This document shows, one piece after another, positions 5,776 to 63,290 of a stretch of DNA of 64,000 nucleotides (position 1 is the stretch's first letter; the number at the start of each line of letters is the position of its first letter). The notes below the pieces were generated by a model. The model saw nothing but the letters and a program-made list of their open reading frames with translations, had not been told where the DNA came from and did not search any database. A program made the translations under genes and the position numbers. Source of the DNA: Candidatus Levyibacteriota bacterium (lineage in GTDB: Bacteria; Patescibacteriota; Microgenomatia; Levybacterales; UBA12049). The DNA is taken from contig PLZJ01000002.1 in the NCBI GenBank assembly GCA_003152105.1, forward strand, positions 469,682 through 533,681, read 5' to 3'.

Positions 5776-5806
5776 TATGTATATGTAATTTGTTATAATC
5801 GGATAC

Positions 5807-14513: not shown

Positions 14514-14773
14514 TTTAAGTTAGTTAATAGTATATCAAAGAATAACTGATGTGAAAACCGGACTAATATTGGGAAATATTCAAATTCATGATTTATAGAA
14601 CCAGGAATAATTAGCTGAACTATTACTTGCATTTATAAAAATAATTTGATATATTTCAATCCGTTTAGCATTAGTAATGGTGAGTTTGGATAAATGAATA
14701 ATAACCCAATATCACCTGCCTATATTCCCCAATGTAATTATTTTTCGTTATGTTTTCAAAGAGGAGGTGAATT

Positions 14774-15097
14774 GTGAAGAAAACAATAATTCTTTTGTTT
14801 ATTGTAACTATTTTTTTAAGTGCACAACCTGCTTTTGCTGATAATGCAGATATTAATAAAGTTCAATCCTTTGTTCAAAGCGTTATTCAACTAATGGTAA
14901 CTCTTGCTGGATTGGTTGCATCTGGCTTTTTTGTTGTAGGAGGATTCCGTTATATAACAAGCTCTGGTAATCCACTGCAATTAGAAAAAGCAAAAAAAAC
15001 AATATTATATTCTGCGATTGGATTAGTGATAGTATTGGGAGCATTTGTTTTTAGTAACATCGTTACTAACCTAGGAACGCAAGCATTCGGTAAATAA
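14774..15097 (+). CDS. VirB2/TrbC-like T4SS pilin precursor (GTG start)
   Basis: Signal peptide + two TM hairpin (LAGLVASGFFVVGGFRYITSSGNP...LYSAIGLVIVLGAFVF); RBS AGAGGAGGTGA 5 nt upstream; precedes VirB6/VirB4 genes. Confidence 0.5.
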   Translation: MKKTIILLFIVTIFLSAQPAFADNADINKVQSFVQSVIQLMVTLAGLVASGFFVVGGFRYITSSGNPLQLEKAKKTILYSAIGLVIVLGAFVFSNIVTNLGTQAFGK

Positions 15098-15105
15098 ATC
15101 GAATA

Positions 15106-16368
15106 ATGAGAAAAGTTAATATATTAATTCTTGCACTAAGCTTGTTTTCAAGCTCGTCTTCTTATGCTTTTGCAAGCAATAATGAAATTCCCAATTTTAC
15201 GAATTCTACTATACATTTTGTTTCTGCTTTTGCAGCTTTATTGTTTATACTTTTCTTAATTAGGGGAGGTTATTATTATATTATTTCTAGTGGTAATGCT
15301 GAAAGATTAATTTCAGCCAAAAGAACAATACTAAATGCCAGTATAGGCTTACTAATTATTATAGCATCTACATTTATAAGTTCTTATCTTCAAAGTACAT
15401 TTAATTCAAATTTCAATACTCACACTGGTAATTCGATTATATTACCTAAAATTCAAGAATCAACATCTTCATCTGGTATTTCTCAAGCGTTAAATGATGC
15501 TATTTCTGGGTTTTTACAGGTGCTGATACAAAGCGCAACAAAACCAACAATTGATGGAATAATTGGATTTTTGTCGTCAACTCCAAGTTTAATACAAAAT
15601 CAAACAATTTTTCATTTTTGGTTAATTATGGTTGGGATCGCAGATTCATTATTTGTTCTTGTAATTGTGTTATTAGGATTGCAAATTATGAGCTCGGAAT
15701 CCTTGGGATTTGGTGAAGTAAATATTAGAAGTGTTATGCCTAAATTAATGATATCGTTTATAGGAATTCATTGTTCAATTTTTATATTACAATGGTTTAT
15801 TGACTTGTGTAATATATTATCAACCACGTTAGTGAATATAACAGGTGGGATTGATCATGCATGGATTATAGATGCTTTTTCTTCAGGCGCTATTTCTATT
15901 GGATCTGAACCGATTATTACTTTAATTTTTTTATTGTTATTTTTAATTTTATCAATAATTTTGCTTCTTTTTTATATCAGTCGTTTAATAATAATTGGTT
16001 TAATAGCTGTTTTATCACCGTTAATATTTTTAATTTGGCCAATTCCTAGATTTTCAGATTTTGCAGAAATCACATTAAAATCCTACCTAGTTACAATTTT
16101 TACGGTATTTATTCATTTGGTAATTATCGAACTTGCATCAGCAATGTTAACTGTTCCAGGTGAAAATGTACACGATAATACATTTATCTCAGTATTAATA
16201 GGTGTAGGCTTACTCTTCTTATTAATAAAAACGCCATCGGTAATGATGCAGTTTATTTTTTATACAAAAGGGGTAAATATAATGAAATCATTCGCTAATC
16301 AAGTTATTAATGTTGCAAGTTCAAGGAGAAGCGTTGGTACGGAATTAGTTAAACATAATGTTGTATGA
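15106..16368 (+). CDS. VirB6/TrbL-like polytopic membrane protein with N-terminal VirB2-pilin-like domain
   Basis: N-terminal ~100 aa paralogous to upstream pilin (FILFLIRGGYYYIISSGNAERLISAKRTILNASIGLLII); >=6 further TMS. Confidence 0.5.
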   Translation: MRKVNILILALSLFSSSSSYAFASNNEIPNFTNSTIHFVSAFAALLFILFLIRGGYYYIISSGNAERLISAKRTILNASIGLLIIIASTFISSYLQSTFNSNFNTHTGNSIILPKIQESTSSSGISQALNDAISGFLQVLIQSATKPTIDGIIGFLSSTPSLIQNQTIFHFWLIMVGIADSLFVLVIVLLGLQIMSSESLGFGEVNIRSVMPKLMISFIGIHCSIFILQWFIDLCNILSTTLVNITGGIDHAWIIDAFSSGAISIGSEPIITLIFLLLFLILSIILLLFYISRLIIIGLIAVLSPLIFLIWPIPRFSDFAEITLKSYLVTIFTVFIHLVIIELASAMLTVPGENVHDNTFISVLIGVGLLFLLIKTPSVMMQFIFYTKGVNIMKSFANQVINVASSRRSVGTELVKHNVV

Positions 16369-16856
16369 AAACTACTAGAATACCAGCTCAAATTACAACT
16401 ATAGAAGATACAGTGGCTGGCAAATTGACATTAAGACAACTTATTTTATTAATAATTCCAATTATTTTATCGATGATGATGTATATATTTATTCCTAAAT
16501 ATTTTAATTTCTCAACTCCAAAGATAATTATTTCTTCTTTCCTAATAATAATTTCATCTGTAGCATCTATTAATACTAAGAATAGATTGATAATAGATTG
16601 GATTGTGATCCTTATCAAATATATTTTTCGGCCCAAATATTTCGTCTACGAAAGATCTAGTATTACGTTTAAAGATAAATTGAAAATGAACTTAATAAAT
16701 AATAAAAATCATGAAAATATTAAGAATAAAATTGAAGAAAAAACCATTTCGACAATATTCAGTTACGGTAAAATTTCACTTAATCCAAAATTTTCTATTA
16801 GTTTTAAGCCTGTTAAAAAAGGAGGTATAAAAGTTGCTATATATAAAATATCGTAA
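16365..16856 (+). CDS. VirB3/PrgI-like small T4SS membrane protein
   Basis: Short N-terminal segment then TM (LTLRQLILLIIPIILSMMMYIFIP); position immediately upstream of VirB4. Confidence 0.35.
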   Translation: MKTTRIPAQITTIEDTVAGKLTLRQLILLIIPIILSMMMYIFIPKYFNFSTPKIIISSFLIIISSVASINTKNRLIIDWIVILIKYIFRPKYFVYERSSITFKDKLKMNLINNKNHENIKNKIEEKTISTIFSYGKISLNPKFSISFKPVKKGGIKVAIYKIS

Positions 16857-17424
16857 TAAAGGTAGTTCTGCAAACCAGATTAAAATTAAAGAAGTAAAAG
16901 ATGGGATATTATGTTTACCAAATAATTTATATAGTGGTATTTTGGAAACCTCTTCTGTTAACTTTGAGTTAAAGAGTATATCTGAACAAGAAATATTATT
17001 ATATTCATTTGAGACGTTTTTAAATTCGCTCCCGTGTCCGATACAGATTTTAGTTCGTACTCGCGAAGTAGTACTGGAAGAATATTTAGAAAGAATTGAT
17101 TCCTTAGGTTTGAAAGAGAATGAGATAATTTATAAAAAGCAATTGAAAAGTTACTCTGAATTTATAAGCAAACTAATTGTAGGAAATAAAATTCTTTCAA
17201 GAAAATTTTATGTGATATATTCATATAATTGTACAAGTGAATTTTCCGTAGTTAAGGAACACATGCAATTGCTGCAAAATATTCTAGTTTCTGGATTTGA
17301 AAGATTGTCTATGAAGGCAAATCCTCAGTCTTCATTGGATATTTTAAAAATCTTTTATACTTTTTATCAACCTGAAAGATCTAAAGTGCAAACCTTGACC
17401 AATGGACTGTTTGATAATATATGA
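16834..17424 (+). CDS. VirB4/TrbE/CagE-family ATPase, N-terminal fragment (separate ORF; either split gene or frameshift)
   Basis: N-terminal VirB4-like region (VNFELKSISEQEILLYSFETFLNSLPCPIQILVRTREV); ends in ATGA overlap with next ORF; 196+585 aa = typical VirB4 length. Confidence 0.5.
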   Translation: MLYIKYRNKGSSANQIKIKEVKDGILCLPNNLYSGILETSSVNFELKSISEQEILLYSFETFLNSLPCPIQILVRTREVVLEEYLERIDSLGLKENEIIYKKQLKSYSEFISKLIVGNKILSRKFYVIYSYNCTSEFSVVKEHMQLLQNILVSGFERLSMKANPQSSLDILKIFYTFYQPERSKVQTLTNGLFDNI

Positions 17425-19178
17425 TCAATTTTTTCAATTTTAATAGCTTTTTTAGAAAAGACACCCAAAATGGCGAAGGAAAAGCATATGATTTTTTGTT
17501 AAAAGATCAAAATGCTATTGATTTAATATCATATGATGGACTTGAAGAGAATAGTACATTTATAAGAATGGGTGATTCATATATTCGAACTCTATTTATT
17601 TCGGGTTATCCATATACAGCAAGTTCAGGATGGCTCTCGCATTTAATAAACTTTAATCAGAATGTAGATATATCTTTTCATATTGAAGAAGTTGATTCTC
17701 AATTAGCTTTACCGAAACTGAACAGAAAAATTACAGAACTTGAGTCTACAAGACGAGCAATGGAAAAACAGGGCAGATTTATAGGATCAGAAATTACAGA
17801 TCCTTTAGAATCTGCGATAGAGTTAAAAAATAAAATTCAAAGAGGACAACAAAAAATGTTTCAATTGTCAATATATATACTTTTGCATTCATCCACAATA
17901 GAGGAATTAAATAAATTAACTAGAATTCTAGAGACACTCTTGGCAACACGACTGTTTTTTTCAAAAATTTCTACATTTCAGCAAATTGAAGGCCTGCAAT
18001 CAATTTTGCCTAGAGGTGAGGATATATTAAAACATAAACGAAATCTTGATAGTGAATCGGCATCTTTAACTTTTCCTTTTATTTCTTCAGAGTTGGTTCA
18101 AGAATCCGGAATTTTATTTGGTATAAATAAATCTAATAATTCATTAGTAATTGTAGATCGATTTTCACTTACGAATGCTAATAGTATAATTTTTGCACAA
18201 TCAGGAAGTGGTAAGTCATATACCTCAAAAGTGGAGATTTTAAGACAACTTATGCACGGTACAGATGTGATAGTAATAGATCCAGAAGGTGAATATAGAC
18301 AACTGTGTAATTCAGTAAAAGGAACTTATATTTCATTATCTATTAATTCAAAAGAAAAAATTAATCCCTTCGACTTAAACGGAAGTTTAGTAAATTTTGA
18401 AGATAAAGTACAGCAATTAACTGAATTATTTTCATTAATGCTGGATGGATTTACCAGTAGAGAAAAAGCAATTATAGACAAAGCTATACTTAAAACTTAC
18501 AAGATATTTGGGTGGACGAGTAAAAAGAAAGGAATAGAATTTCCATTATTGAAAGATCTTTACAGTACTTTATTAAAAATGGAAGAATTTGATCTCAGTA
18601 ATAGGATAGAAAAATATGTTAATGGATCATTATCTAAATTGTTTAATAAACAAACTAATGTGGAATTAAAAAATAGGTTAATAGTATTTGAGATAAAACA
18701 TTTACCTGAGTCAATTAAATCAATTATGATGTTGGTATTAGCTTCACATATTAACGGGATTGTTAAAGTATATCCAAAACGGAGGCTATTAGTAATAGAT
18801 GAGGGGTGGAAATTGCTTGAAAATAAAGAAACAGCTAGATTCATGACAGACTTGGTCAGACGCGGAAGAAAATATTATTTGGGAGTAAATATTATCACAC
18901 AACAGGCAAACGATTTCCTTAACAATGAATATGGACGAGCTCTAGTTTCGCAATCTTCACTGAGGATTTTAATGAAACAAGATACAACCACAATTAAAAA
19001 AGTTGTGAATGAATTTGCTCTGTCAGAATATGAACGTAATTTTCTATTAACCTGTGATAAAGGTGAAGCTTTAATAATAGCTGATCAAAATCATGTATCT
19101 GTTCAAATTGTAACTTCCAAGTCTGAACATCCGCTGCTCACAACAGATCCTAAAGAACTGTTAAGAACAAGTGTATAA
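17421..19178 (+). CDS. VirB4/TrbE/CagE-family T4SS ATPase (central and C-terminal ATPase domain)
   Basis: Walker A SGSGKS, Walker B LLVIDEGW; VirB4-type flanking conservation. Confidence 0.85.
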   Translation: MINFFNFNSFFRKDTQNGEGKAYDFLLKDQNAIDLISYDGLEENSTFIRMGDSYIRTLFISGYPYTASSGWLSHLINFNQNVDISFHIEEVDSQLALPKLNRKITELESTRRAMEKQGRFIGSEITDPLESAIELKNKIQRGQQKMFQLSIYILLHSSTIEELNKLTRILETLLATRLFFSKISTFQQIEGLQSILPRGEDILKHKRNLDSESASLTFPFISSELVQESGILFGINKSNNSLVIVDRFSLTNANSIIFAQSGSGKSYTSKVEILRQLMHGTDVIVIDPEGEYRQLCNSVKGTYISLSINSKEKINPFDLNGSLVNFEDKVQQLTELFSLMLDGFTSREKAIIDKAILKTYKIFGWTSKKKGIEFPLLKDLYSTLLKMEEFDLSNRIEKYVNGSLSKLFNKQTNVELKNRLIVFEIKHLPESIKSIMMLVLASHINGIVKVYPKRRLLVIDEGWKLLENKETARFMTDLVRRGRKYYLGVNIITQQANDFLNNEYGRALVSQSSLRILMKQDTTTIKKVVNEFALSEYERNFLLTCDKGEALIIADQNHVSVQIVTSKSEHPLLTTDPKELLRTSV

Positions 19179-19773
19179 CAGATCATTTATTAATTTATAT
19201 AATTTTACTTTTGAGTTAAAAATATTATTATTACTTTTTTTAATAATATTGCTTCTTCCAATTATAGGAATATTTATATTAACTCAAGAAGGATTTAGTA
19301 AAGTTTCCAATTATTTGGTTAACAATACCGCTCATTCAATCAGATTAAATTATCCAGATGGCAAGCTTTACAAAATAATAAATATTCAAACAGTTTGGCC
19401 TTTACATGGCATAACTACTCTTGAATTTGGGCAAAATGATTTTCCATACCAACCATTTCATACTGGTATAGATATTGCAGGACCATTTGGTTTTCAAATA
19501 ATTTGTGCCATGAGCGGGAAAGTAGTTTATGCAGGAGAAATATCATGGGGTTATGGTAAGCATGTTATCGTAAATAACGATAACAATATTCAAACCGTTT
19601 ACGCACATCTCGATAGTATAGCTGTTAAGAATGGAGACGAATGTATAACGGGGAAAACAGTTATAGGTACCGAAGGTCAAACTGGTTGGGCGACAGGACC
19701 ACACTTGCATTTTGAGATTGATCTTTGGGGGATTCCGGTAAATCCAAGAAATTTTATTTATGGGAATCCTTAA
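19171..19773 (+). CDS. M23 (LytM-type) peptidoglycan endopeptidase, membrane anchored
   Basis: HTGIDIA ... GPHLHFEI M23 zinc motifs; overlaps virB4 stop; likely T4SS-associated cell-wall hydrolase. Confidence 0.8.
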   Translation: MYNRSFINLYNFTFELKILLLLFLIILLLPIIGIFILTQEGFSKVSNYLVNNTAHSIRLNYPDGKLYKIINIQTVWPLHGITTLEFGQNDFPYQPFHTGIDIAGPFGFQIICAMSGKVVYAGEISWGYGKHVIVNNDNNIQTVYAHLDSIAVKNGDECITGKTVIGTEGQTGWATGPHLHFEIDLWGIPVNPRNFIYGNP

Positions 19774-19818
19774 ATAATTATTTTAACAGTCCCAGATATG
19801 ATATATTAAGATTAGTAT

Positions 19819-33398: not shown

Positions 33399-33558
33399 AC
33401 TCAGATTATAGCAAAATACAATACGAAGATTTGGGATTGAGTGCGGGCAAGTTGTTTGTTTTGAAGGTTTTCTCGATAGAGAAGAACGGTCATTGCAGAC
33501 AGAGCTTGCCTCGCGTGCACTCATTTTGTTGCGGGAATGTTATACATGCAGCCGTTGC

Positions 33559-33864
33559 TTATAGTGGTCTTCCATGGAGTGCATCATCGTAGCTTTGTGA
33601 TCTGATTGCTTCGCCTAAAGATTGAACGTCAGCATGCTTAACCTTTGTTAGTTCGGAGACTGAAACATTGATGCAGTCGGCGAAAATACCGGTTACGTAG
33701 TGTGGAGCACGTTCACCTCTTGAGATGACATGAAGTATGATTACTTGAACTTGACCTTTTTTGGTTTGTTCATCTAATACTGAAACGATTGATCGTTCGG
33801 CATGCTTCTCATTGTTTACGTTCCTTTCGAGAATGTAAATTTCGTCGACTTCGACTCTATCCAC
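33559..33864 (-). CDS. Hypothetical protein (GC-rich islet 1)
   Basis: ORF; local G+C visibly above window background. Confidence 0.3.
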   Translation of the reverse strand: MDRVEVDEIYILERNVNNEKHAERSIVSVLDEQTKKGQVQVIILHVISRGERAPHYVTGIFADCINVSVSELTKVKHADVQSLGEAIRSQSYDDALHGRPL

Positions 33865-33909
33865 AATAGTTCCTTTCTATGTTGTTAGTTGAATTTGAAA
33901 AAGATCTAT

Positions 33910-34233
33910 CTACAAATGCCAAACCAAATTTGCCAGTAGCACGAGTGTCACAAAGCAAATAACAGAACCGATGAGTGTCCACCATGACAGCTTCACTGTT
34001 CTTCTGTTCGTAGGATATCGACGGGTTTCTGGTGTACCTGCAATATAATTCAACAGCAAAAAGAATGCTGAAACGAGAATAAAGCAGGCGCAAACACAGG
34101 CTCCAAAAATGGCGACTATGTACTCGATTATGTTAATCATCGTCTTTCTCCTTCTGTTTGTATGTTGTGCTGCGAAGGCAAATCCTACGTACTCAGCTTT
34201 GCTTATGTTTGTATCGCGTATCCATCTGGCCAT
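33910..34233 (-). CDS. Small hypothetical membrane protein (GC-rich islet 1)
   Basis: Two TM segments; likely starts at internal Met MINIIEY. Confidence 0.3.
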   Translation of the reverse strand: MARWIRDTNISKAEYVGFAFAAQHTNRRRKTMINIIEYIVAIFGACVCACFILVSAFFLLLNYIAGTPETRRYPTNRRTVKLSWWTLIGSVICFVTLVLLANLVWHL

Positions 34234-34628
34234 CTCACATTGATCGTACCATCTCCTACTCTGAAGAAATCAAATACGTCCAATCCAAACAAGCCAACAG
34301 AGAGCGAGACTTTACATCCGGTGGTTGGGCACAGATCTACAGTAGAACTACAATCTATTCCAGAGCAGTCAACGTGGATCGTGTTTTCTCCATCGTATGT
34401 TATTGTGTAGGTTGTATCGTACTTATCTTGCGAACTTATGACGAGTTGTCCACCAACTGGTACATTGGCAAGGTTATTACCAACAATTGAAACGCCGCTT
34501 GACCTTGGTTGACAACTTTCTAGCCAAACGACAAGTCCGACAATAAGAACGATAGTAGATACGACGAGTCCAAAGGCAGAAATATAATAACGCATGCATT
34601 TCCTTTTGTTCTTTTTAGTAAGCGACAT
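34203..34628 (-). CDS. Membrane-anchored Cys-rich hypothetical secreted protein (GC-rich islet 1, first gene)
   Basis: N-terminal TM; 8 Cys in ectodomain. Confidence 0.35.
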   Translation of the reverse strand: MSLTKKNKRKCMRYYISAFGLVVSTIVLIVGLVVWLESCQPRSSGVSIVGNNLANVPVGGQLVISSQDKYDTTYTITYDGENTIHVDCSGIDCSSTVDLCPTTGCKVSLSVGLFGLDVFDFFRVGDGTINVRWPDGYAIQT

Positions 34629-34654
34629 ACTACGTATAGCTTTATACGCACAAT

Positions 34655-34798
34655 ATCACTTACTAAATGTGTATTTTTCCGCAACTTGTGAATGTGCAAA
34701 TGAAAAAAAACAAGATATAAAATGCTTATTTCTATAACTGTCTTTTAGCCATGGGAGTATAGCAGAATAAAGAGAGCACTTCAAGTGCTATAGGATTA
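34655..34798 (-). promoter_or_regulatory. Conserved repeat element copy 1: minus-strand promoter (TTGAAG-17-TATACT, TG-extended) plus conserved ~120-nt 5' leader
   Basis: 15-mer TTGTGAATGTGCAAA and blocks GGAGTATAGCA.AAT / CAAGTGCTATAGGATTA shared with 49433-49563; ATCACTTACTAA shared with 63134-63145. Confidence 0.5.
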
Positions 34799-34902
34799 TT
34801 TGCGTTATTATTTTTCGTACAATAACTTTTTATCCTTATATTACTCTTATATGTATATTTATTACTTGACTTACCGAAACAATTACATTGTAATTAATAC
34901 AT

Positions 34903-36031: not shown

Positions 36032-36262
36032 ATGCCAAAAGAATTAAAACATCCCTTAGAACATAATGAGGGACCAAGGAGAAAAGAATCGTCTGTATAC
36101 CTGCTTTTTAGTAGAGCTTCTCATAGACTTGTTGATCTTTTTAATAGTCAAAATATCCCTTCAGATAGGCCTCATCCAAAGCAATTAACACAAGATCATA
36201 CAGATGAAATAGCAATGGAACTTGGAAAGCGTCCAGAAGAACAAAGAGATGTGAAAAAATGA
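36032..36262 (+). CDS. Small hypothetical protein (76 aa), 1 nt downstream of the 375-aa gene
   Basis: ORF. Confidence 0.3.
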   Translation: MPKELKHPLEHNEGPRRKESSVYLLFSRASHRLVDLFNSQNIPSDRPHPKQLTQDHTDEIAMELGKRPEEQRDVKK

Positions 36263-36590
36263 AATGAGAGAGAGTTTTGTCCTATAAGGAAGTAAAAGGG
36301 GTATGCAAGCTTTTGCACACGTTTTACATTCCCTAAGGAGAGGGTCTGTGGTAACACCACAGTATCACCACAGACCCTCATTCGGTTGTCGACCCAGGAT
36401 TACCCTAGATCAACATTCCACTTCTTGACTGAACGTTCAAGTCTTGCCCACGTGTTAGTAGACTCAACTCTATCGTACAGCTCAAGAACCGTACTGAGAA
36501 GAGAAAAAGCCTGTAGTAATTAAAAACATCATTATTTTAGCTATTAATTTTTCATAAAGGAAAGTGGAGTAAATGAAGGAAAAAAGAATT

Positions 36591-36670
36591 GGGGCTGAGT
36601 GATTTTGGATTAAGCTAAGAAGCTACGGCTGCTTACGCAGAAATAGATTTTTGCTTGGTCACTCAGCCCC
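36591..36670 (-). terminator. Hairpin (12-bp GC-rich stem GGGGCTGAGTGA / TCACTCAGCCCC) followed on minus strand by a T-rich run; candidate terminator of 36689..36973
   Basis: Perfect 12-bp inverted repeat with a ~56-nt loop; AATTCTTTTTTCC follows on the minus strand. Confidence 0.35.
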
Positions 36671-36688
36671 TACGTGTGTTACGAACGA

Positions 36689-36973
36689 TTAGAATTCAAA
36701 CTTGACAGATCCTTGTCGATCTTTGGTCGAAAAATGGACGCTGATATTCCCGAAATCGGCGTTGTAGCCATAAATCATCCAGGATTCTCCGCTGCCGTTT
36801 TCTCGATGGACTCCTTTGATATACATGATAAATCCGGTAACGTAAGTAGTTGTTTTAATGTCAAAATACATAAAACGCGTTCCAGACTCACCATCAAAAA
36901 GGTTGAGCATGAGATCGAACTTGGATGGGCCTGCAATGACGGGATACATCTGATCGGTCTGGATAAGAGACAT
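36689..36973 (-). CDS. Hypothetical protein (GC-rich islet 2)
   Basis: ORF. Confidence 0.35.
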   Translation of the reverse strand: MSLIQTDQMYPVIAGPSKFDLMLNLFDGESGTRFMYFDIKTTTYVTGFIMYIKGVHRENGSGESWMIYGYNADFGNISVHFSTKDRQGSVKFEF

Positions 36974-37091
36974 ACGTCCCTCCTTCTATGGCTAATCTGC
37001 GAAAACGGCAGAAGCGCTGTTGCACTGATATTCATCAGTACCACCTGAATTTCGATCCAGGAATTAAATGGTGCCCCTCAGTAGATTTCGA

Positions 37092-37472
37092 CTAGTTGCT
37101 ACTTGTCCACTGAATTTTGCCATCTCTTGTGATCACACAGGAAATGAATTCACCCTCGATCAGCAGTGCTGAGACTGATAGATCGTTTTGGGAAAGGTTA
37201 AAGCTTCGAGCACAAAGCGCAGCCCAGGTATGAGCTAACCAGGTTAACTGGTTCTCATAAAGACTGCGAAGCTGATTAAAGCCAGGGCTTCCCAAAAGCG
37301 GATTGACGAGCGTGACATTGTCGAGAAGAACCTTTCCTTGACCTTGAGGCAAATGAGCCCTGAAATCAGTGATGATCTCATCAGGCGCATGCTTCATATA
37401 GTCTTGGGCTTCAGGTCTCCACGAATCTCGGGCGATGAATCGATTGGTAAAACGAAACGAAGGTAATCGCAT
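37092..37472 (-). CDS. Hypothetical protein (GC-rich islet 2)
   Basis: ORF. Confidence 0.35.
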   Translation of the reverse strand: MRLPSFRFTNRFIARDSWRPEAQDYMKHAPDEIITDFRAHLPQGQGKVLLDNVTLVNPLLGSPGFNQLRSLYENQLTWLAHTWAALCARSFNLSQNDLSVSALLIEGEFISCVITRDGKIQWTSSN

Positions 37473-37707
37473 GGCAGCATCCTTTCTATAAAGTTTTATC
37501 TACTGAGGAGCATTCTAAACACAACATATGTTCACAATGCCACTCAGTAAATTAACACACGTACTATAAAAGAGCTACGAAAAGTTTGGATACGCAGCTT
37601 TTGCCTATCGTCCTTTTTCGTCTTGGAATTGTAGCAAAAAGAGGCACAACAGTCAACTACTACAGGATAAAAGAACCGTTACCACAAGGGGACAAGTAGT
37701 AGTAATA

Positions 37708-45399: not shown

Positions 45400-45810
45400 A
45401 TGCAGTATAAAAATTCACTTACCATGCAGGGAATTGCAATGCTTCTTATGCTGCTTTTGCAATATTTTCTTGGTATGTATACAAATCTCTATGTACAATT
45501 TCCAAATGGTCAACACGGAGATATTCTTTGGGAGTTTGCATGGAAGCAACTTCCCCTTGTGCTTCATATAATCCTTGGCATATTACTTATTGTTAATGCC
45601 ATTATTTTAATTATCCGTTCGTTCTTGCAAAAAAATAAAACGTGGATTAAGGCCTCTATCATTGGCTATGTTGGTATTCAAATCGCAGCACTTTCAGGAG
45701 CGGCATTTATTCCAACGCAAGTGGCAATATATTCATTTTCTATGTCTTTGTGTTTCCTCCTTGCGCTTCTTGCCTATGGATACGGCATTTATGCTTCGAA
45801 AGTAAAATGA
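45400..45810 (+). CDS. Hypothetical 4-TMS membrane protein
   Basis: ORF. Confidence 0.4.
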   Translation: MQYKNSLTMQGIAMLLMLLLQYFLGMYTNLYVQFPNGQHGDILWEFAWKQLPLVLHIILGILLIVNAIILIIRSFLQKNKTWIKASIIGYVGIQIAALSGAAFIPTQVAIYSFSMSLCFLLALLAYGYGIYASKVK

Positions 45811-46472
45811 AATTTATAGTTTCTGTTATCGTTATTGCATTTACCTCATTTATTGTTTATAAGGTTTGTTCAACATCAACAAAAACCAAAAAGAAGCAGA
45901 AATCAAAACACAAAAAAGCACTTATTGCCTCAATTGTGACTGCGCTTCTTTTGCTCGCTTTTCTTTTTTATGTTATGTATCAAGCGCAAACTGCCAAAGA
46001 TTTTCAGTGCAGTAATACACAAATTGTGTCTACAAAACTTCCGAGTAAACTGCAAACTGCACTGGATTATTTTTTGCTTGGAAATTATGCATATGATAGT
46101 GGAAACTGCCGACAAGCAATTGTCGACTATACAAAATCAATCCAAAAAAACCCAAATTATCCAGAAGTGTTTAATAACAGGGGATATACGTATATGCGAC
46201 TTAGAAATTATAAAGCCGCGCTTTTGGATCTAAACCGCGCAATTTTACTAAAACCAAATTATATTCAAGCGCTGATGAATAGAGGTGATATCTATAACTA
46301 TTATTATCAAATAAATAGACAAAAGGCTGTTTTAGATTATAAGAAAGTTATTTCACTTGGCGGAGGAAATAGCACAAGTGTATGTGGGCATTTGTTCTTG
46401 GCAGAAAACAACGGATGGCATATTGGTACGTTTTTACATCTTCCTTTTTTACTTTTTTCAAACTGCCGGTAA
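45807..46472 (+). CDS. TPR-repeat protein, N-terminal TM anchor, K-rich linker
   Basis: Tandem TPR motifs (A..Y..AI..NP.Y.....NRG); ATGA overlap with upstream gene. Confidence 0.6.
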   Translation: MKFIVSVIVIAFTSFIVYKVCSTSTKTKKKQKSKHKKALIASIVTALLLLAFLFYVMYQAQTAKDFQCSNTQIVSTKLPSKLQTALDYFLLGNYAYDSGNCRQAIVDYTKSIQKNPNYPEVFNNRGYTYMRLRNYKAALLDLNRAILLKPNYIQALMNRGDIYNYYYQINRQKAVLDYKKVISLGGGNSTSVCGHLFLAENNGWHIGTFLHLPFLLFSNCR

Positions 46473-46503
46473 TAACTCATGCATACCCTGTTATAATCTC
46501 TCT

Positions 46504-46908
46504 ATGAAAAAATTATATCCCTCAGACAAAATATATGTTGGCAAATCACATGTTGCAAAAAATGAACGTGGAGTTTTTGCAAAAAGAGCTATTAAAAAAA
46601 ATGAACTTATAGAAACGTGTCCGGTAATTGAAGTATCAAAACAAGATGCAAAAAACCTGCGAGAAAGTATTTTAATTACCTATTTTTATTATTTTGGGAA
46701 AAAGAAAGAACGATTCGTAACTGCTCTTGGATTTGGATCACTCTATAATCACACCTATTCACCTAATGCTGTGTATAGTGTTAACCATAAAACCCAAGTA
46801 CTTCAATTTAAAGCAATCAGAGATATTAAAAAAGATGAAGAAATAACCGTAAATTATATCTTTGCCTATCCTAATGCAAAAAGTCCTCTTTGGTTTGAAA
46901 ACGCTTAA
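46504..46908 (+). CDS. SET-domain protein (putative protein-lysine methyltransferase)
   Basis: RGVFAKRAIKKNELI, NHTYSPN (NHSCxPN-like), EEITVNY. Confidence 0.65.
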   Translation: MKKLYPSDKIYVGKSHVAKNERGVFAKRAIKKNELIETCPVIEVSKQDAKNLRESILITYFYYFGKKKERFVTALGFGSLYNHTYSPNAVYSVNHKTQVLQFKAIRDIKKDEEITVNYIFAYPNAKSPLWFENA

Positions 46909-46910
46909 AC

Positions 46911-47702
46911 CTATTTAGCTTTAGGAAATTGAAATGAATTTACCATTTGTGTAAATAGATTATCTTGGTTACTTGCGCTTTGAATATACATTTCATAGGT
47001 TGACCCATTGTAATAGGCATATGCTGCATCAGTTATTCCAGGAATAGACCCTTGTGTTAGAAGGAGTACGGGAACACCATTTACCGTAGTATCTGTTTGA
47101 TTTTTAAACGCTTTTGGACTTACGCTACTGTCGTTTGATGCATTTTCTAAAAAGGTCTTATAACTTTGATAAGAGCTAAAATTATTGTTTGCCTCAATTA
47201 AAATAGTAAGTTTTGAGCCTGTTAATACCACAACATGCACTGGATCCGCACTGTTTACCGTATAATCTGGCGACGTAAAATCATACCCATTTACTGATGA
47301 AACATCTTGATTGTTTGCTGATTCGACCCAGTTTGAAGGATAGTTAAGAGTAAAATGTAAGCTTGCATCACTATAATTTTTCCAATTAGTAGTTTGAGCA
47401 GAAGTTGAAGAAGCTGATGGGTTTTGTGCACCTGGTGGTTGTATAGTAACAGGAGGAATGCTTTTAGTTTTTACTATGGTTTGCACTGGATTTGAAGTAA
47501 TACTTAGTTGCCCTTGCGCTTTTCCAACCATATAGAAAATGACACCTGATACAAGTGCTGCAAGCAGACAACAGAGCAGAATTAGAATTACTCTTGGAAA
47601 ATGAAAATGCTTGGAAACAATTGGAGGTTCTTGCGTTGCAGGTTGTTGGGTAACAACAGGTTGCGGTTGTTGAACTGGCTGTTGTTGAACAGAATTATCC
47701 AT
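46911..47702 (-). CDS. Membrane-anchored surface protein with Q/P-rich N-terminal tail (paralogous anchor module to 8863..9552)
   Basis: HFPRVILILLCCLLAALVSGVIFYMVG matches HIPRILLVLFACLISGVLFGVAGYF. Confidence 0.4.
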   Translation of the reverse strand: MDNSVQQQPVQQPQPVVTQQPATQEPPIVSKHFHFPRVILILLCCLLAALVSGVIFYMVGKAQGQLSITSNPVQTIVKTKSIPPVTIQPPGAQNPSASSTSAQTTNWKNYSDASLHFTLNYPSNWVESANNQDVSSVNGYDFTSPDYTVNSADPVHVVVLTGSKLTILIEANNNFSSYQSYKTFLENASNDSSVSPKAFKNQTDTTVNGVPVLLLTQGSIPGITDAAYAYYNGSTYEMYIQSASNQDNLFTQMVNSFQFPKAK

Positions 47703-47897
47703 ATCTATACTATTCCATAGTTACCAGTATTAGTCAAGAAAAGCTCAAGGAGGTAGAGAATGTTAAAACAAGGATTCTAAGTTGTGGGTAATGTTTTAAG
47801 AATGGACGCGAAGGGTAGACTACAATATGTAGTAAAGGTCAATTGACCACTACCCAACGCGATGCGTCCACTCACAGAATGTGCTGCGGTTTTGCCG

Positions 47898-48266
47898 TTA
47901 GGCTTTTTGAAGAACCAGTCCCTTTACCCTTTCAGGTTCGAGAGTACTGCCTCCAGGTGGGAAGAAAACGCCACGTTCGCCGACGAATGCGACAGAAAAA
48001 GCGAGTCGATCGTCACTTATTACGTTGAAAGAGGTGACCATTAGGCTCGCAAAGTACCTGAGACGTTCTTCATCGGTGACAGCAAGCCAGTCAAAATCTT
48101 CTGTCGCCTCGGCGAGCCATTTGTAGGTTACGTAGAGGTACTGATTGTCCTCTTCGCCCTCGATCCATGCGCGCTCGACTTCTCCCCGAGTAACAGGTTC
48201 GCCAGAGCATTGTCTTTCGAGTTGTCCTCCTGCGTAGTGTGCGAGAACTTCGTTTGTGATTTTCAT
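47898..48266 (-). CDS. Hypothetical acidic protein (GC-rich islet 3, gene 3 of 3); start at internal Met with RBS
   Basis: ORF; GAAAGGAAAC RBS before MKITNEV. Confidence 0.3.
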   Translation of the reverse strand: MKITNEVLAHYAGGQLERQCSGEPVTRGEVERAWIEGEEDNQYLYVTYKWLAEATEDFDWLAVTDEERLRYFASLMVTSFNVISDDRLAFSVAFVGERGVFFPPGGSTLEPERVKGLVLQKA

Positions 48267-48297
48267 GTTGTTTCCTTTCGTATTCGACGTGTTGTTT

Positions 48298-48930
48298 TTA
48301 GTGTTGGTGTACAGCAAACGAATCAGGATCGAATGCTTCGACGGCTCGGTCGGGCGTGATGGTGACAGTCTTGGCTTGGGCATCTACAGCATTGATCGTG
48401 AAGATCTGTTGCTTGGTCTTGCCCAACTGGAAAGGTGGAGGCGTTGTTTGCTTTGGAAGAACCTCAGCTAGCATCGCCAGCACATATCCTTGGACGCTGA
48501 AAAGACTCGGAGTCAGGACGAAGGGAGCAAACGGATCTTCAAGAAACGCTATTCCTTCTCCTTCAATCTCAAGCTTAACGAGTGTCGAAGATTTGTCGCC
48601 TCCAAGCGGTTTGAGATAAATGGGATTTCCTTCGGAAACCACGAGTTGTCCCAGGTCTGAGGGCTCAAACTGAGTCCTTAAGTTTCCTGGACGAATAACT
48701 CGTTCGTTTCCGCATGAACAGCGTTTTTCGGAACCTTCCCGAACTGCATCCCAGCGAGGATCAGTAATTCCACTTCTTCCTCCTGGAAGTTCGACGTAGA
48801 CGTTCTGGGTCAAGTCTGCTCTCTGCTCAACGAGCAAATTGCAGGCCGCCAGATACAGTTCTTCGTCGAATTGAGTTCGGTCTGTCTGAACTCCACGAAC
48901 GTACGAAATTGCGTCTTGGACTGTTTCCAC
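48298..48930 (-). CDS. Hypothetical protein (GC-rich islet 3, gene 2)
   Basis: ORF. Confidence 0.35.
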   Translation of the reverse strand: METVQDAISYVRGVQTDRTQFDEELYLAACNLLVEQRADLTQNVYVELPGGRSGITDPRWDAVREGSEKRCSCGNERVIRPGNLRTQFEPSDLGQLVVSEGNPIYLKPLGGDKSSTLVKLEIEGEGIAFLEDPFAPFVLTPSLFSVQGYVLAMLAEVLPKQTTPPPFQLGKTKQQIFTINAVDAQAKTVTITPDRAVEAFDPDSFAVHQH

Positions 48931-48982
48931 TCTATTTCTCCTTTAAGATTCTGCTTGTTTCCCAGGTAAGGAAAGAGCAGGT

Positions 48983-49333
48983 TTATGCCTGTGAGTGAGC
49001 CTGTTCTGCGTGTCTTCTGATCGCAACTGCGATGCATGATCCTCTGGCAGCGAGACCTTCTCGGACCGCCGTCTGCATTGGTTGATCGTAGCCCCTTATA
49101 GTGAAGAGAGCATTGAACTTGGTATACAAGTCCTCAAATCTCTTCGTTAGGGCTCGCATCTTCAACGCCGTATCGTCGTCCACATGAGCAACGAGCTCTT
49201 GGGAGACTGGTTGGTCGGACGGAAGCAGAATTGCCAGTTGTGCCTCCACTTGGTCTAGCTCCACAAGGATTTCTCTGCCTTGTTGGCAAACCTCGTCGAA
49301 GTCATAACCGAGCTGTAGGTATTGTAGCTTCAT
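48983..49333 (-). CDS. Hypothetical protein (GC-rich islet 3, gene 1)
   Basis: ORF. Confidence 0.35.
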   Translation of the reverse strand: MKLQYLQLGYDFDEVCQQGREILVELDQVEAQLAILLPSDQPVSQELVAHVDDDTALKMRALTKRFEDLYTKFNALFTIRGYDQPMQTAVREGLAARGSCIAVAIRRHAEQAHSQA

Positions 49334-49432
49334 GAGTACTCCTTTTTATTGTTATTTGTTCTTTCCTTAACCTGGGAAAGAAAATAGGCATAAATACCCA
49401 CTTTCTTCCTCAGGCTAATTGGGAACAATGTA

Positions 49433-49563
49433 CCGCAACAAATTGTGAATGTGCAAAAATAACTAAAATTAGCACGAAATAAACTGCTTATGTCTAAATA
49501 TGCTAATTTTTAGTTAAAGGAGTATAGCAAAATTAAAGATCTCTAACAAGTGCTATAGGATTA
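49433..49563 (-). promoter_or_regulatory. Conserved repeat element copy 2: minus-strand promoter TTGTTA-17-TATACT (TG-extended) plus conserved leader with 13-bp-stem hairpin
   Basis: Shares ~80% identity over ~120 bp with 34679-34798; leader contains ACTAAAAATTAGCA ... TGCTAATTTTAGT inverted repeat. Confidence 0.5.
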
Positions 49564-49633: not shown

Positions 49634-50335
49634 TTAAAGTATTGAAGTAGATAATTGTTCCCATTGTTTCTTTCTTAAAGTTAAGTCTGGATTAGTCTCT
49701 ATGATTTTCTTTGCCTTTTCCAAGTATTCCCTAGCTTTATTCTGGTCATCATTCTTTATTATATTTGCAATTCTCATATACCCTCCTGCTACCCAAACAT
49801 CTTTGCTGTATTTATTTGGTGCATCATCAGACGCTTTAAGTTCTTCCAAAGCTTTTTCAGCTCTTTCTAAAGCAGTTTTATCTCCAGCTTTATATTCACA
49901 AGTTGCTAGATGAACTTTCATATCTGCTAAAACTGAATTTCTTTTATGTGTTTCTGGAGGATTATTTTCCATGTTTTCCACTGCTTCTTTATATGATTTT
50001 ACCGCTTCATCAAATTCTCCTAAGTCTTCCTGTAGTTCTGCAAGATTATATAGTGGTATTCCAAGAGATTCTTTAATACCACTTTGCCTTGCTAAATCAA
50101 CAGAAGCTAGCATTTCATATTTTGCTAAAGTTAATATTCTTTTGCTTTTGTGCAAGCTGCCATAAACTCTTAGGGTTATAGAACGACAAGCAAGACCTTC
50201 TGAAAATCCTAAGTCATCATTTTCTTTGTCATAAGCAAATAATGCATCATCATTAAAGGTTAACGACTCTGTAAACTGCTCTTTTTCTCTCGCTTTTGCA
50301 GCATTACCATGTAATATTCTTCCTTTACTTTGCAT
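49634..50335 (-). CDS. TPR-like helical repeat protein
   Basis: Repeated A..Y...A...EAV / KA.E.L TPR-like helices. Confidence 0.45.
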   Translation of the reverse strand: MQSKGRILHGNAAKAREKEQFTESLTFNDDALFAYDKENDDLGFSEGLACRSITLRVYGSLHKSKRILTLAKYEMLASVDLARQSGIKESLGIPLYNLAELQEDLGEFDEAVKSYKEAVENMENNPPETHKRNSVLADMKVHLATCEYKAGDKTALERAEKALEELKASDDAPNKYSKDVWVAGGYMRIANIIKNDDQNKAREYLEKAKKIIETNPDLTLRKKQWEQLSTSIL

Positions 50336-59350: not shown

Positions 59351-60028
59351 TTAGTTTGTACGCTCAAAGGTGAAGTTTATGCTATAAACACTTGACTCAT
59401 CTCCATATTGATTTTTATATTGTAGCTGGAGTGTATTTGCTCCATTTGGCGGTGAATAACAAAGTGTTGAAAACGCTTGATAATCATTCCATCCTGCGTT
59501 ATTAATATTTTGTTTTCTCATAAGTCCACTCGTATCTCCACCTCCTGGTGCGTCAACAACACAAAATGTTTGTGAAGAATTCATGCTAATTGATTGACCG
59601 TTTGTTGGATAGGTAATATTCATTTGAGGAGGATTAGAAGTATGTGGAGATGAAGTAGGAGTTGGGGTAACTGTTGGCGTAGGAGAGAGTGAAGGTGTTG
59701 GAGTTAGGGTAACTGTTGGAACTTGTGTTGGACTTGATTGTTGTATTTGATTACTTGTTTGCGAATCGGGTACTGGTGTATCTGTTGGTGCCTCTGTAAT
59801 GCTTGGTGCTTCGGTAGTTTGGGAACTTGTCTTACCTCCTCCTTTACTACCAAAAATATATGTTGCTCCAGAAAATACAAGCACGATTGCAAGCAAAACA
59901 AGAGATACAATACTTTTGTTATGTTTTAACCACACAACATATTTATTTTGAAAACTGAGTTGTTTTAAAAGTGGTGTATTATCTAGTTCGACTTTCTCGT
60001 TTTGATCTTCTTGAGGGGAATCTTTCAT
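59351..60028 (-). CDS. Membrane-anchored surface protein, PT-rich linker, unknown C-terminal domain
   Basis: N-terminal tail + TM (SIVSLVLLAIVLVFSGATYIFG) + TPTP linker. Confidence 0.4.
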   Translation of the reverse strand: MKDSPQEDQNEKVELDNTPLLKQLSFQNKYVVWLKHNKSIVSLVLLAIVLVFSGATYIFGSKGGGKTSSQTTEAPSITEAPTDTPVPDSQTSNQIQQSSPTQVPTVTLTPTPSLSPTPTVTPTPTSSPHTSNPPQMNITYPTNGQSISMNSSQTFCVVDAPGGGDTSGLMRKQNINNAGWNDYQAFSTLCYSPPNGANTLQLQYKNQYGDESSVYSINFTFERTN

Positions 60029-60076
60029 TCCTATACTATTCCATATAGTGCCTAGTATGTCAATATATTGGTAGCT

Positions 60077-61432: not shown

Positions 61433-61591
61433 TAGGATAATTATAACAAAATAAAAAACTAAGATAGGTATGGTGGAAATTGAGTAAGTAGAGTGATAAT
61501 GCTTGAGTGCATAAATCGCCTCCTTTTCAAAGATTTTACTCTTTTTCCACCAAACCCTGGCATCTTATTCTTCTTATAGATCCCTCCTATA

Positions 61592-62116
61592 CTAGTTTCT
61601 AGACATTGCATCTGGTGGTCGAAGATTGAGACCTTCGCTGACCAAATACAGAAATGTATAAAGATCGTAATCTTTTCCAATTTCTGCCGAGAACCTTTTG
61701 GGGTTCTTGCAATAAGGTCCAAAGCACCAGTTTCTAGGAAAACCTTCAAAGTAAATTGGCGAAATTCTTTCTTCTCTGTCGATGAGTTGGAAGAAGTTGT
61801 CCGGCACAGGCCTGTTAGACTTGATACTCAACTTCCAGTTATAGAAGTTATACCGAAGTCGTACTTCTATTCCTCCAAAGGCAAGACTGTATACGGGAAG
61901 GAGAACCGATTTTGATCGATGTGTTCCAACGACTCGTACTGGATTTGCCTTCCAATCTTCAAAGGTCACCGAGAATAATCTTGAAAGATCATCTCGAACA
62001 AAAAGAAATTGATGTTCGAATCCCTTGTGCCAAAGAAGATCATTGTTTGGTTGATGTTCGTTTGCCCAATCTTGCAGTTGTGGAGAGTCTTCTCTTTTCT
62101 TTGTGACAGAGGTCAT
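61592..62116 (-). CDS. Hypothetical protein (GC-rich islet 4, gene 3)
   Basis: ORF. Confidence 0.3.
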   Translation of the reverse strand: MTSVTKKREDSPQLQDWANEHQPNNDLLWHKGFEHQFLFVRDDLSRLFSVTFEDWKANPVRVVGTHRSKSVLLPVYSLAFGGIEVRLRYNFYNWKLSIKSNRPVPDNFFQLIDREERISPIYFEGFPRNWCFGPYCKNPKRFSAEIGKDYDLYTFLYLVSEGLNLRPPDAMSRN

Positions 62117-62160
62117 GTTCGAATCCTTCCAAGTTGTATTAGTTCGTCAAAAAAGTCCAG

Positions 62161-62568
62161 CTAACGTTCGAACTGAAACCGATCGAATTGCATAGATACC
62201 ATTGTGGAAAAAGGAAGGAACGCTTTGAACTGGGGAAGAGAAAATTCCAAATAGTCACTTTCCTTGTCTTTTCCCGTTTCAATCTCGATCCAACACCCTT
62301 GGTAAATATCGCCGTACAAGAGTACTAGTTTTGCACGGTATAACAGATTGTCGTCATTGTTCCTGAATTGAAGACGAATGTGATCTTCGTCGCCACCAGG
62401 AAGCACCAGAACGTGCATGCGGTGAGTGAATATGTGTTTTTCTAACTCATTCGCCAGTTCTTCTCGTAGAGATCCTGTTCTGGCATGTGAAAGCCACTTT
62501 GCAAAATCTTCTGGTTTGATCGGATTCCACTTTTCCAAAGTACTGGTTGCAACTGCTGTTTTTGGCAT
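62161..62568 (-). CDS. Hypothetical protein (GC-rich islet 4, gene 2)
   Basis: ORF. Confidence 0.3.
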   Translation of the reverse strand: MPKTAVATSTLEKWNPIKPEDFAKWLSHARTGSLREELANELEKHIFTHRMHVLVLPGGDEDHIRLQFRNNDDNLLYRAKLVLLYGDIYQGCWIEIETGKDKESDYLEFSLPQFKAFLPFSTMVSMQFDRFQFER

Positions 62569-62600
62569 TTTTATTTTCCTTTCAGTGTTTTGGTGTTGAT

Positions 62601-63059
62601 TTACAGTCTATCTAGCGTACGTTCGTCACAGTCGATAACCATTCCTTCTCCGTAATATAAATCTGGAGAGCGCCAAATCAAGCCGAATTCGCGTTTTCCG
62701 AAGTAGGAAGGAAATTCCATTCCATACTCCATGTGAGTGACGAGAATAAGGATGTCACCTTCATCTGCTTTATCTTTAACAAGCCCAAGAGCTGCAGGAA
62801 GATTTTCGGGATGGTTGTCTTCAGCCCAGAGTACCTCATGTTGCTCGAAGTCGTCTTCTGTCCAGCCGAACATTTCGCACAGTACTTTGGCGCTGTCAAC
62901 GGCTCGAGGAGCAGTAGAGGAGAGAAGGAAGAAAGTATCTCTATCTCCGGCAAGTGCTTCAATTTTTTCACCTGCTTGCTCCATTTGCTCTCGTCCCTCT
63001 TCGCTTATCCGCCTATCGTAACCGTGTTTTCCGTGACGCAGGATAACCAATTTTTTCAT
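62601..63059 (-). CDS. Histidine phosphatase family protein (SixA/phosphoglycerate-mutase-like), islet 4 gene 1
   Basis: RHG motif VILRHGK at N-terminus; ILILVTHMEYG (His) later. Confidence 0.55.
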   Translation of the reverse strand: MKKLVILRHGKHGYDRRISEEGREQMEQAGEKIEALAGDRDTFFLLSSTAPRAVDSAKVLCEMFGWTEDDFEQHEVLWAEDNHPENLPAALGLVKDKADEGDILILVTHMEYGMEFPSYFGKREFGLIWRSPDLYYGEGMVIDCDERTLDRL

Positions 63060-63133
63060 TGTTTTTCGTTCTCCGTTTTGTTGAGTTCACTAAGTAAGTG
63101 ACACGCTGAGTACCAACATATGATACACAATGC

Positions 63134-63290
63134 ATCACTTACTAATGTTTATTCTATAAGAAGTTATTAAGGTGCAAAATGCTCGAAACACCACAATACA
63201 ATGCTAGTATGTATGTTTGTTTTTGAGCTTGTGGATTATATAACAAGACGGACTATATTGCGAACTGCAAATAAATAATATAAAGGTTAC
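63134..63290 (-). promoter_or_regulatory. Conserved repeat element copy 3 (more diverged), upstream of islet-4 operon
   Basis: ATCACTTACTAA(A)TGT, GTGCAAA and AATGCT blocks in the same order and spacing as copy 1; candidate minus-strand promoter TTCGCA-18-TATAAT. Confidence 0.4.

Follow-up and report, generated by a model that had tools for sequence, protein, structure and literature searches.

A repeated promoter-leader element upstream of horizontally acquired gene cassettes in a Candidatus Levyibacteriota genome

The DNA analyzed in this work, referred to below as the window, comprises 64,000 nucleotides (nt) of contig PLZJ01000002.1 (positions 469,682 to 533,681, forward strand) from the Candidatus Levyibacteriota bacterium assembly GCA_003152105.1, and was obtained from a decaying-wood metagenome. 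The window has a G+C content of 35% and contains four copies of a non-coding repeat, three of which (copies 1 to 3) had been described in an initial annotation made from the sequence alone. All four copies lie on the minus strand, and each is located directly upstream of an island of raised G+C. In every copy the parts follow one another in the same order: promoter, a first hairpin (HP1), a single-stranded box, a second hairpin (HP2), a ribosome-binding site (RBS) and one to three orphan open reading frames (ORFs). The repeat together with the genes behind it is referred to here as a cassette, and the coordinates of its parts are collected in Table 1. With copies detected elsewhere included, seven are known across three genomes.

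Homology between the copies was assessed by local alignment against shuffled sequences, by blastn and with a sequence profile. Copies 1 and 2 aligned with a z of 24 and, in blastn, over 126 columns at 73% identity (E=1e-15), and as judged from these alignments their homology is beyond doubt; the identity of about 80% reported initially becomes ~73-80% according to how gaps are counted. The blocks first described were recovered: TTGTGAATGTGCAAA has exact occurrences at 34686 and 49443 and one with 3 mismatches at 63164, and CAAGTGCTATAGGATTA has exact occurrences at 34782 and 49547 (0.18 expected). Copy 3 aligned more weakly with copy 1 (z=8.3, blastn E=2e-4), and the pairwise local alignment of copies 2 and 3 was not significant. 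A profile built from copies 1 and 2 and one copy from outside the window recovered copy 3 (E=2e-4) and also found copy 4 at 37669-37590 (E=3e-4), which had been missed. By alignment and profile score, copy 3 is a divergent member of the repeat family.

Promoter matches fell in one register across all copies. A scanner found the two promoters that had been proposed for copies 1 and 2, TTGAAG-17-TATACT and TTGTTA-17-TATACT, both with the TG extension. The -35 and -10 elements are sigma70-like and separated by 17 nt in all copies but copy 3 (18 nt), TGn precedes the -10 element in every copy save copy 3, and an upstream block, CCTATAG/A, is common to the different genomes. Palindromes of the kind bound by transcription factors (CRP, ArgR, CIRCE-like) were looked for by eye and set aside as candidates: the sole palindrome, AGCACTTGAAGTGCT in copy 1, is absent in copy 2.

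The initial annotation had proposed a search for further copies, and this search returned, besides copy 4, members of the family in two other metagenomic genomes. An exact two-block pattern matched one organism in JGI metagenomes (L005, L006), which has no other nucleotide similarity to the window. In its copy 5 (c5, L006), TTGACC-17-TATACT forms the promoter and the 25-nt box does not differ from that of copy 1; this copy precedes G+C-rich orphan genes and adjoins ruvAB. Copy 6 (c6) is a second, diverged L006 copy on the opposite strand, before another G+C-rich gene. The best non-training match of a covariance model of the leader (R1) was in L129 (GCA_964525245.1), between a TTGACT-17-TATCAT promoter and the 5'-untranslated region (UTR) hairpin of a homologue of the 210-aa gene of island 2; L129 likewise shares no other DNA with the window. 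No match was found among GTDB species representatives with two exact-core patterns, a form of matching that would miss diverged copies. In IMG/VR, the 15-mer alone gave at least 120 chance matches, none with an adjoining GCGG, a 22-base pattern gave none, and a degenerate box pattern gave 13, apparently in coding sequence (by eye) and without HP1; with no bona fide IMG/VR copy, a viral origin is unsupported.

Behind the promoter, the predicted transcript of HP1 starts RCNAAAA and forms a two-tier hairpin with AGC in the apical loop of every copy. From an unsupervised MAFFT alignment of six copies, RNAalifold returned two helices with 11 pairs, 8 of them with compensatory changes, so that the check for compensatory change suggested initially came out in favor of conserved folding. 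Paired cells amounted to 83%, as compared with 70% in shuffled alignments and 39-47% with the partner strand slid, and the covariation score was 0.485, as compared with 0.27 in shuffles and 0.12-0.17 when slid; 0 of 500 shuffles attained the observed HP1 values. The box that follows HP1 (consensus UUGCACnUUmAyAA-(0-3 nt)-UUGCGGAA) is ~25 nt long and predicted to be single-stranded. At GCGG(A/U)A the leader changes sharply from conserved to variable. From the end of the conserved part to the start codon the distance is 80-100 nt, which corrects the 50-230 nt given initially. The HP2 hairpin is long and varies in sequence from copy to copy, with the exception of copies 1 and 3, which have homologous arms. 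The ATCACTTACTAA block earlier seen in these two copies is indeed shared by them, but it constitutes one HP2 arm and does not belong to the common core.

The leaders fold more stably than the corresponding regions of other genes in the window. Predicted folding energies over the 110 nt preceding the first gene of each of the four cassettes were -29 to -39 kcal/mol, as compared with -15.0 +/- 5.1 kcal/mol (minimum -23.9) for 54 other window genes. Sense and antisense strands of five leaders gave -40/-25, -53/-38, -42/-33, -49/-31 and -81/-49 kcal/mol, respectively; the sense strand was the more stable in 5/5, which points to G-U pairs and, through them, to selection on RNA.

A structured and conserved leader may suggest a riboswitch that senses a ligand or tRNA, a transcription attenuator or a leader-peptide attenuator; a riboswitch and an attenuator were among the options of the initial annotation. 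An alternative pairing of the 3' arm of HP2 with a segment behind the first ORF (ORF1), and a frame that is open through the box in five copies, are consistent with such control. However, HP2 is followed by A-rich or mixed sequence with no U tract, and the RBS, 10-25 nt beyond, is unpaired, which makes HP2 neither a terminator nor a sequestering hairpin; its sequence is also not conserved. The open frame has no start codon in copies 2 and 5 and no Shine-Dalgarno sequence in any copy, and as a leader peptide it was rejected. No common metabolic theme links the cargo, and no aptamer family matched: Rfam 15 gave no match over the whole window at the gathering threshold, copies 1 and 2 searched at E up to 10 returned only chance eukaryotic small nucleolar RNA and microRNA matches far below gathering, and related loci returned tRNAs only. 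These results agree with the earlier statement that the leader belongs to no described RNA family, and riboswitch or attenuator control is considered very improbable.

The two features just named were recorded in some detail. Nested inverted repeats bracket ORF1 alone in cassette 4 (37498-37512 with 37072-37086) and cassette 2 (49357-49405 with 48955-48990); in both, two competing pairings are available to the 3' arm of HP2, one with its 5' arm and the other with a segment lying a few nt beyond the stop codon of ORF1, and this repeat could serve as a processing stem or switch. The frame that is open through the box (34677-34740, 49431-49500 and 63155-63215 in the window; 230-315 and 4035-4100 in L006) encodes the peptide motif F/I-C-T-F/L-T/I-x-C-G, and copy 2 has an in-frame 3-nt insertion.

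The cargo consists of one to three ORFs per cassette, each with a good RBS, and has the composition of foreign genes. G+C at third codon positions is 0.34-0.54, as compared with 0.18-0.30 in 30 other genes of the host. The cassette proteins are unrelated to one another (best E=0.08 in an all-against-all BLASTP) and received no Pfam or PHROG assignment save a weak SixA/His_Phos similarity, and the genes flanking the cassettes differ between copies. The first gene after copy 1 probably starts at the ATG at 34595, not at 34628. The 210-aa protein of cassette 2 has homologues (~50% identity) that are encoded by genes of likewise ~50% G+C in genomes with a G+C content of 44-55%; the sequence comparison fits acquisition of this gene from such genomes. 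Its predicted fold (pLDDT 80) had no PDB match better than E=0.1. The repeat is tied one-to-one to these horizontally acquired cassettes.

Loci of cargo homologues in other genomes were mostly without the element: among loci of the 210-aa homologue, only L129 has a (diverged) copy, and at those of the SixA-like homologue it was not found. Near-perfect 22-24-bp hairpins were observed just upstream of the RBS of small genes in metagenomic genomes unrelated to one another (L128 5893-5943, L129 5897-5949 and L138 ~2930-2985), and long 5'-UTR hairpins may be general to such transferable genes. An attempt to establish synteny with close relatives through a flanking ICMT gene failed, the best homologue being 52% identical; the best matches of this protein include Patescibacteria-type metagenome-assembled genomes at ~50% identity.

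At the other end of several islands, inverted copies of the heptamer GTTGCGG were found just past the last gene. These trailers lie 3-85 nt after the last stop codon and, in 6/7 cassettes, ahead of a terminator-like hairpin and U tract, which would place the trailer inside the transcription unit. Inverted repeats between box and trailer were returned by a repeat finder for cassette 5 (19 nt at 84%), cassette 6 (19 nt at 84% and 14 nt at 93%) and L129 (12/12), and cassettes 3 and 4, whose boxes have diverged, carry an 11-nt perfect complement of their own variant 7-11 nt after the last stop. In a pre-specified test, a 32-nt box window was scored against the 100 nt behind the last stop codon, and scores of the same box against the 100 nt behind 53 other genes served as the null; the match lay above all 53 controls in 5/7 cassettes (combined p ~2e-5). 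When pairing with the own trailer was compared with pairing with the trailers of other cassettes, 3/720 permutations attained the observed sum. The predicted leader-trailer duplexes have 21-29 pairs, internal loops included. The 3' ends of the L006 cassettes (1238-1320, plus strand; 3241-3170, minus strand) fold into three-hairpin, cloverleaf-like domains with GNRA/UUCG loops and a long closing stem, with a U tract behind. Ordinary terminators are simpler than these domains, which had no ARAGORN or Rfam match.

Inverted boxes at both ends of a cassette could instead be sites in DNA, either the ends of mobile cassettes lacking a transposase or recombination sites for exchange or inversion; promoterless foreign genes would then have been dropped behind a resident promoter-leader, as in integrons or pdif modules. 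HP2 and the genes are bracketed by inverted repeats in 5/7 cassettes, the repeat arms begin TG...CA, conservation ends abruptly at GCGG(A/U)A, the box-trailer duplex has no RNA-strand bias, and the cargo is foreign and different at each copy, all of which would be expected of such sites. In other genomes, moreover, one cargo family has tRNA genes as neighbors, along with an att-like fragment of a tRNA. Yet no target-site duplications or direct repeats flank the six cassettes inspected, ~110 conserved nt (promoter and HP1) lie outside the left repeat, and the regions beyond the right repeats are unrelated. Within this one genome, the arms of copies 3 and 4 differ from those of copies 1 and 2 while each fits its own partner, and repeats that differ in sequence would not be recognized by a single recombinase or transposase; none was found among the neighboring ORFs tested. 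Eight independent short-read contigs from other samples matched at 100% identity in collinear order, none of them with an inversion or an empty site, and all 7 cassettes are co-oriented with the promoter, which speaks against an inverton or shufflon within a limited sampling. A DNA-site origin of the repeats is considered unlikely. At the distal ends of the islands, nothing was found in common except an ordinary host promoter.

Beside the 210-aa homologue at L128, a partial duplicate of the tRNA-Lys 3' end was observed (5704-5850), ~40 nt downstream of the tRNA; it suggests an att-like scar of integrase-mediated insertion. Phage morons and mobile insertion cassettes (MICs, MIC231-type) are likewise small and independent and differ in composition from the DNA around them; morons carry their own promoter and terminator, and MICs are bounded by inverted repeats and have no transposase. 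Unlike morons, the cassettes have no phage context, PHROG matches or IMG/VR copies. In contrast to MICs and miniature inverted-repeat transposable elements, they lack target duplications, and their inverted repeat, which is not conserved in sequence between copies, lies inside the conserved left end.

A simpler account holds that a promoter region was merely duplicated, or is 'mobile', before silent foreign genes, the conservation of the leader reflecting recent descent and its hairpins acting as generic stabilizers. Prokaryotic genomes commonly contain families of homologous upstream sequence attached to genes that are not homologous (PMC3488235, PMC3575422), the -10 region TTTTGCTATA(A/C)T is similar to that of ordinary promoters in this genome, and long 5'-UTR hairpins also precede related genes in genomes free of the element. 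The pairing of HP1 was kept through compensatory changes, however, two genomes with nothing else in common have the same 25-nt box, and diverged boxes are tracked by their own trailers. Retained HP1 pairing, the sense-strand folding bias and trailers matched to their own boxes together indicate selection on the transcript, unlike mere promoter copying, and duplication of a promoter region as the whole explanation is regarded as quite unlikely.

The putative mobile promoters of Matus-Garcia, Nijveen and van Passel 2012 (PMC3488235), defined by at least 50 nt at >=80% identity, are the closest comparison for the upstream part. As in these, homologous upstream regions are found within and across genomes with non-homologous genes on both sides. 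The strict cut-off is not reached by copies 1 and 2 (73% over 126 nt, and below 80% in every 50-nt stretch; best ungapped 56 nt ~71% identical by hand count), which qualify only under the relaxed 'extended family' rule (E<1e-4). In contrast to mobile promoters, the conserved part here is mostly transcribed leader, with covariation and a partner sequence at the 3' end.

The reading favored here is that the leader RNA acts in cis and, with its leader-trailer helix, stabilizes, processes or antiterminates transcripts of foreign genes, and it is held at about even confidence. The initial annotation had proposed a shared cis-acting RNA before accessory operons of above-background G+C, and this part of it was borne out by the same-register promoters, the copies outside the window, the compensatory changes in HP1, the sense-strand folding bias, the foreign codon usage and the mutually unrelated downstream genes. 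The element would then be the 5' control module of self-contained expression cassettes for horizontally acquired genes. A TG-extended sigma70-type promoter would begin the RNA, whose first ~45 nt would form HP1 with its A-AGC loop; the box, a cassette-specific HP2, the RBS and one to three foreign ORFs would come next in the transcript. The box and the bases just after it may pair with the trailer, in a helix that would loop out the whole message as in pre-rRNA. HP1 and box are proposed as the recruitment site of a protein, and the leader-trailer helix and HP2 as double-stranded processing or stabilizing sites of the RNase III type. As a result, poorly adapted, G+C-rich foreign transcripts would become processive and stable. 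Firing of the promoter, formation of the helix in vivo, binding of a protein and an effect on expression are steps we infer from sequence and predicted structure.

Several results weigh against this reading. The box-trailer matches of copies 1 and 2, the copies with the best-conserved box, were at chance level in the pre-specified test. With broad flanks (150 x 100 nt), ordinary genes equaled the cassettes in inverted matches and duplex energies; flanks of this width do not discriminate, and the evidence therefore rests on the position of the match, not on raw complementarity. The leader-trailer duplex has no sense-strand (G-U) bias (3 vs 3), which leaves room for a DNA-level meaning of the repeat. 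The covariation in HP1 comes from few events, with only seven copies known, and the model leaves unexplained how one module came to stand before unrelated cargo.

The closest architectural parallel is the leader of rRNA (rrn) operons, in which boxB, boxA and boxC follow the promoter and a leader-trailer helix of >17 bp encloses 16S rRNA and carries an RNase III site (PMC10250234); boxA leaders also occur at suhB and CRISPR arrays (PMC5725501, PMC7665894). As in the rrn leader, a hairpin and a linear box follow the promoter and a leader strand is complementary to a trailer behind the unit, and the predicted cassette helices have 21-29 pairs against the >17 bp needed for 16S. The box fits the boxA consensus GYTCTTTAANA (PMC5725501) at 7-9 of 10 positions, a consensus that is gamma-proteobacterial and may not be that of the host. 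C4, T6 and T7 are invariant across the seven copies; per copy, the resemblance is at chance (60 sites within 3 mismatches in the window vs 44 expected). The enclosed unit differs from that of the rrn leader, being a foreign protein-coding mRNA whose ORFs have RBSs, and not rRNA or a CRISPR array.

A more specific version of the favored reading, the 'xenogene expression platform', would have rRNA-leader architecture co-opted for foreign genes, with a boxB-like hairpin, a boxA-like box bound by NusB-S10, and the leader-trailer helix. The polymerase would become resistant to termination over G+C-rich, poorly translated and otherwise Rho-prone genes, RNase III would process the transcript at the helix, and cassettes bearing the module would be exchangeable between related genomes. 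This version is tentative and on present evidence improbable in its full form; the boxA/Nus idea is a lead, not a result.

Complementarity between the two ends of one mRNA is known from icaR of Staphylococcus aureus, where the 3' UTR complements the 5' UTR and covers the Shine-Dalgarno sequence of a single gene (PMC3868564). The cassettes are similar in having a 3'-UTR segment complementary to their own 5' UTR, a possible RNase III substrate, but differ in that this segment is complementary to a conserved box lying far ahead of the RBS, an arrangement that occurs family-wide on unrelated cargo. The element is best grouped with known kinds, the propagated promoter-leader and the leader-trailer architecture, as a variant of these.

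Table 1. Parts of the four cassettes in the window, with positions counted from the first nucleotide of the window.
Feature	Position	Strand	Description
Raised-G+C islands	33.3-34.6 kb, 36.7-37.5 kb, 47.8-49.35 kb, 61.5-63.1 kb
Copy 1 promoter	34756..34798	-	Upstream block TAATCCTATAGCAC; -35 TTGAAG 34784-34779; TGn and -10 TATACT 34761-34756; aligns with copy 2
Copy 1 HP1	34703..34749	-	5' RCNAAAA run, two-tier stem, loop AUAAGCA; covariance-model match 34749-34677
Copy 1 box AUUUGCACAUUCACAAGUUGCGGAA	34677..34701	-	Predicted single-stranded between HP1 and HP2; proposed leader strand
Copy 1 HP2	34614..34667	-	25-nt arms, 80% complementary as DNA, more with G-U; 12 nt upstream of RBS
Cassette 1 cargo	33559..34595	-	Up to 3 orphan ORFs, foreign codon usage; second (33910-34233) overlaps alternative ORF call
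Cassette 1 trailer	33509..33553	-	Inverted partial box CCGCAAC..GUGCAC, 24 nt after last stop; weak, 13/53 controls as high
Copy 4 element	37543..37672	-	Promoter, HP1, variant box GCUCUUUUAUAGUACGUGUGUUA; covariance-model match 37622-37543
Copy 4 promoter	37656-37628	-	TTGACT-17-TACAAT with TG
Copy 4 HP2	37495..37555	-	27-nt arms
Cassette 4 cargo	36689..37472	-	126-aa ORF and second ORF, GC ~0.45
Cassette 4 trailer UAACACACGUA	36661..36687	-	11/11 complement of own box variant, 7 nt after stop; 0/53 controls
Cassette 4 terminator-like element	36580..36670	-	12-bp G+C stem, then AAUUCUUUUUUCC, directly after trailer
Copy 2 promoter	49521..49563	-	TAATCCTATAGCAC; -35 TTGTTA, 17 nt, TGn and TATACT
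Copy 2 HP1 and box	49431..49511	-	Perfect 12-bp outer stem, loop AUAAGCA; box UUUGCACAUUCACAAUUUGUUGCGGUA 49457-49431
Copy 2 HP2	49371..49415	-	Sequence unrelated to copy 1 HP2
Cassette 2 cargo	47898..49333	-	116-aa, 210-aa and 122/161-aa ORFs, GC ~0.50
Cassette 2 trailer ACCGCAGCACAUUCUGUGAGUG	47862..47897	-	7 nt after stop; weak box match, 6/53 controls as high
Copy 3 promoter-like site	63235..63264	-	TTCGCA-18-TATAAT
Copy 3 HP1 and box	63155..63228	-	Loop UAGCAUU; variant box UUUGCACCUUAAUAACUUCUUAUA
Copy 3 HP2	63093..63143	-	Arms homologous to copy 1 HP2 (ATCACTTACTAA block)
Cassette 3 cargo	61592..63059	-	SixA/His_Phos-like 152-aa ORF and two orphan ORFs
Cassette 3 trailer UCUAUAAGAAG..AAUAAGAUGC	61542..61581	-	Complements own box variant, 11 nt after stop; 0/53 controls
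Cassette 3 terminator-like element	61445..61557	-	Compound hairpin and U-rich tract after trailer

Other features of the window were recorded alongside the cassettes. Positions 14700-19800 are very A+T-rich (GC 0.26-0.30) and encode a TrbL-like protein (15106-16368) and a VirB4/TraG-like ATPase (17421-19178); this region looks like a conjugation or type IV secretion module and is possibly part of an integrated element. A 38-nt direct repeat (47682-47719 and 60008-60045, 76% identical) covers a TG-extended -10 element, AATAGT, and in each case this element ends ~7 nt short of the start codon (ATG) of a gene for a Q/P/T-rich secreted protein (46911-47702 and 59351-60028); the repeat has the look of another duplicated promoter, whose mRNAs would probably be leaderless. 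Between cassettes lie genes for SET-domain and TPR-repeat proteins (46357-46908, 45750-46472, 49634-50335), which are eukaryote-like domains often found in host-associated bacteria. Between cassette 4 and the 34903-36262 genes, a non-coding-looking segment of raised G+C (36260-36660) has no convincing ORF and contains a perfect 13-bp hairpin (GAGGGTCTGTGGT...ACCACAGACCCTC, ~36340-36380).

If the favored reading is correct, foreign genes in a very small, A+T-rich genome would be expressed through a reusable promoter-leader-trailer frame and not by promoter evolution gene by gene. The leader would represent a new family of structured leader RNA absent from Rfam, and its helix would be the first family-wide leader-trailer helix around mRNAs instead of rRNA. 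Covariance model R1 would provide a sequence tag for accessory cassettes in related uncultivated bacteria, and the proposal makes testable the idea that Nus/boxA antitermination or RNase III processing protects horizontally acquired genes from silencing.

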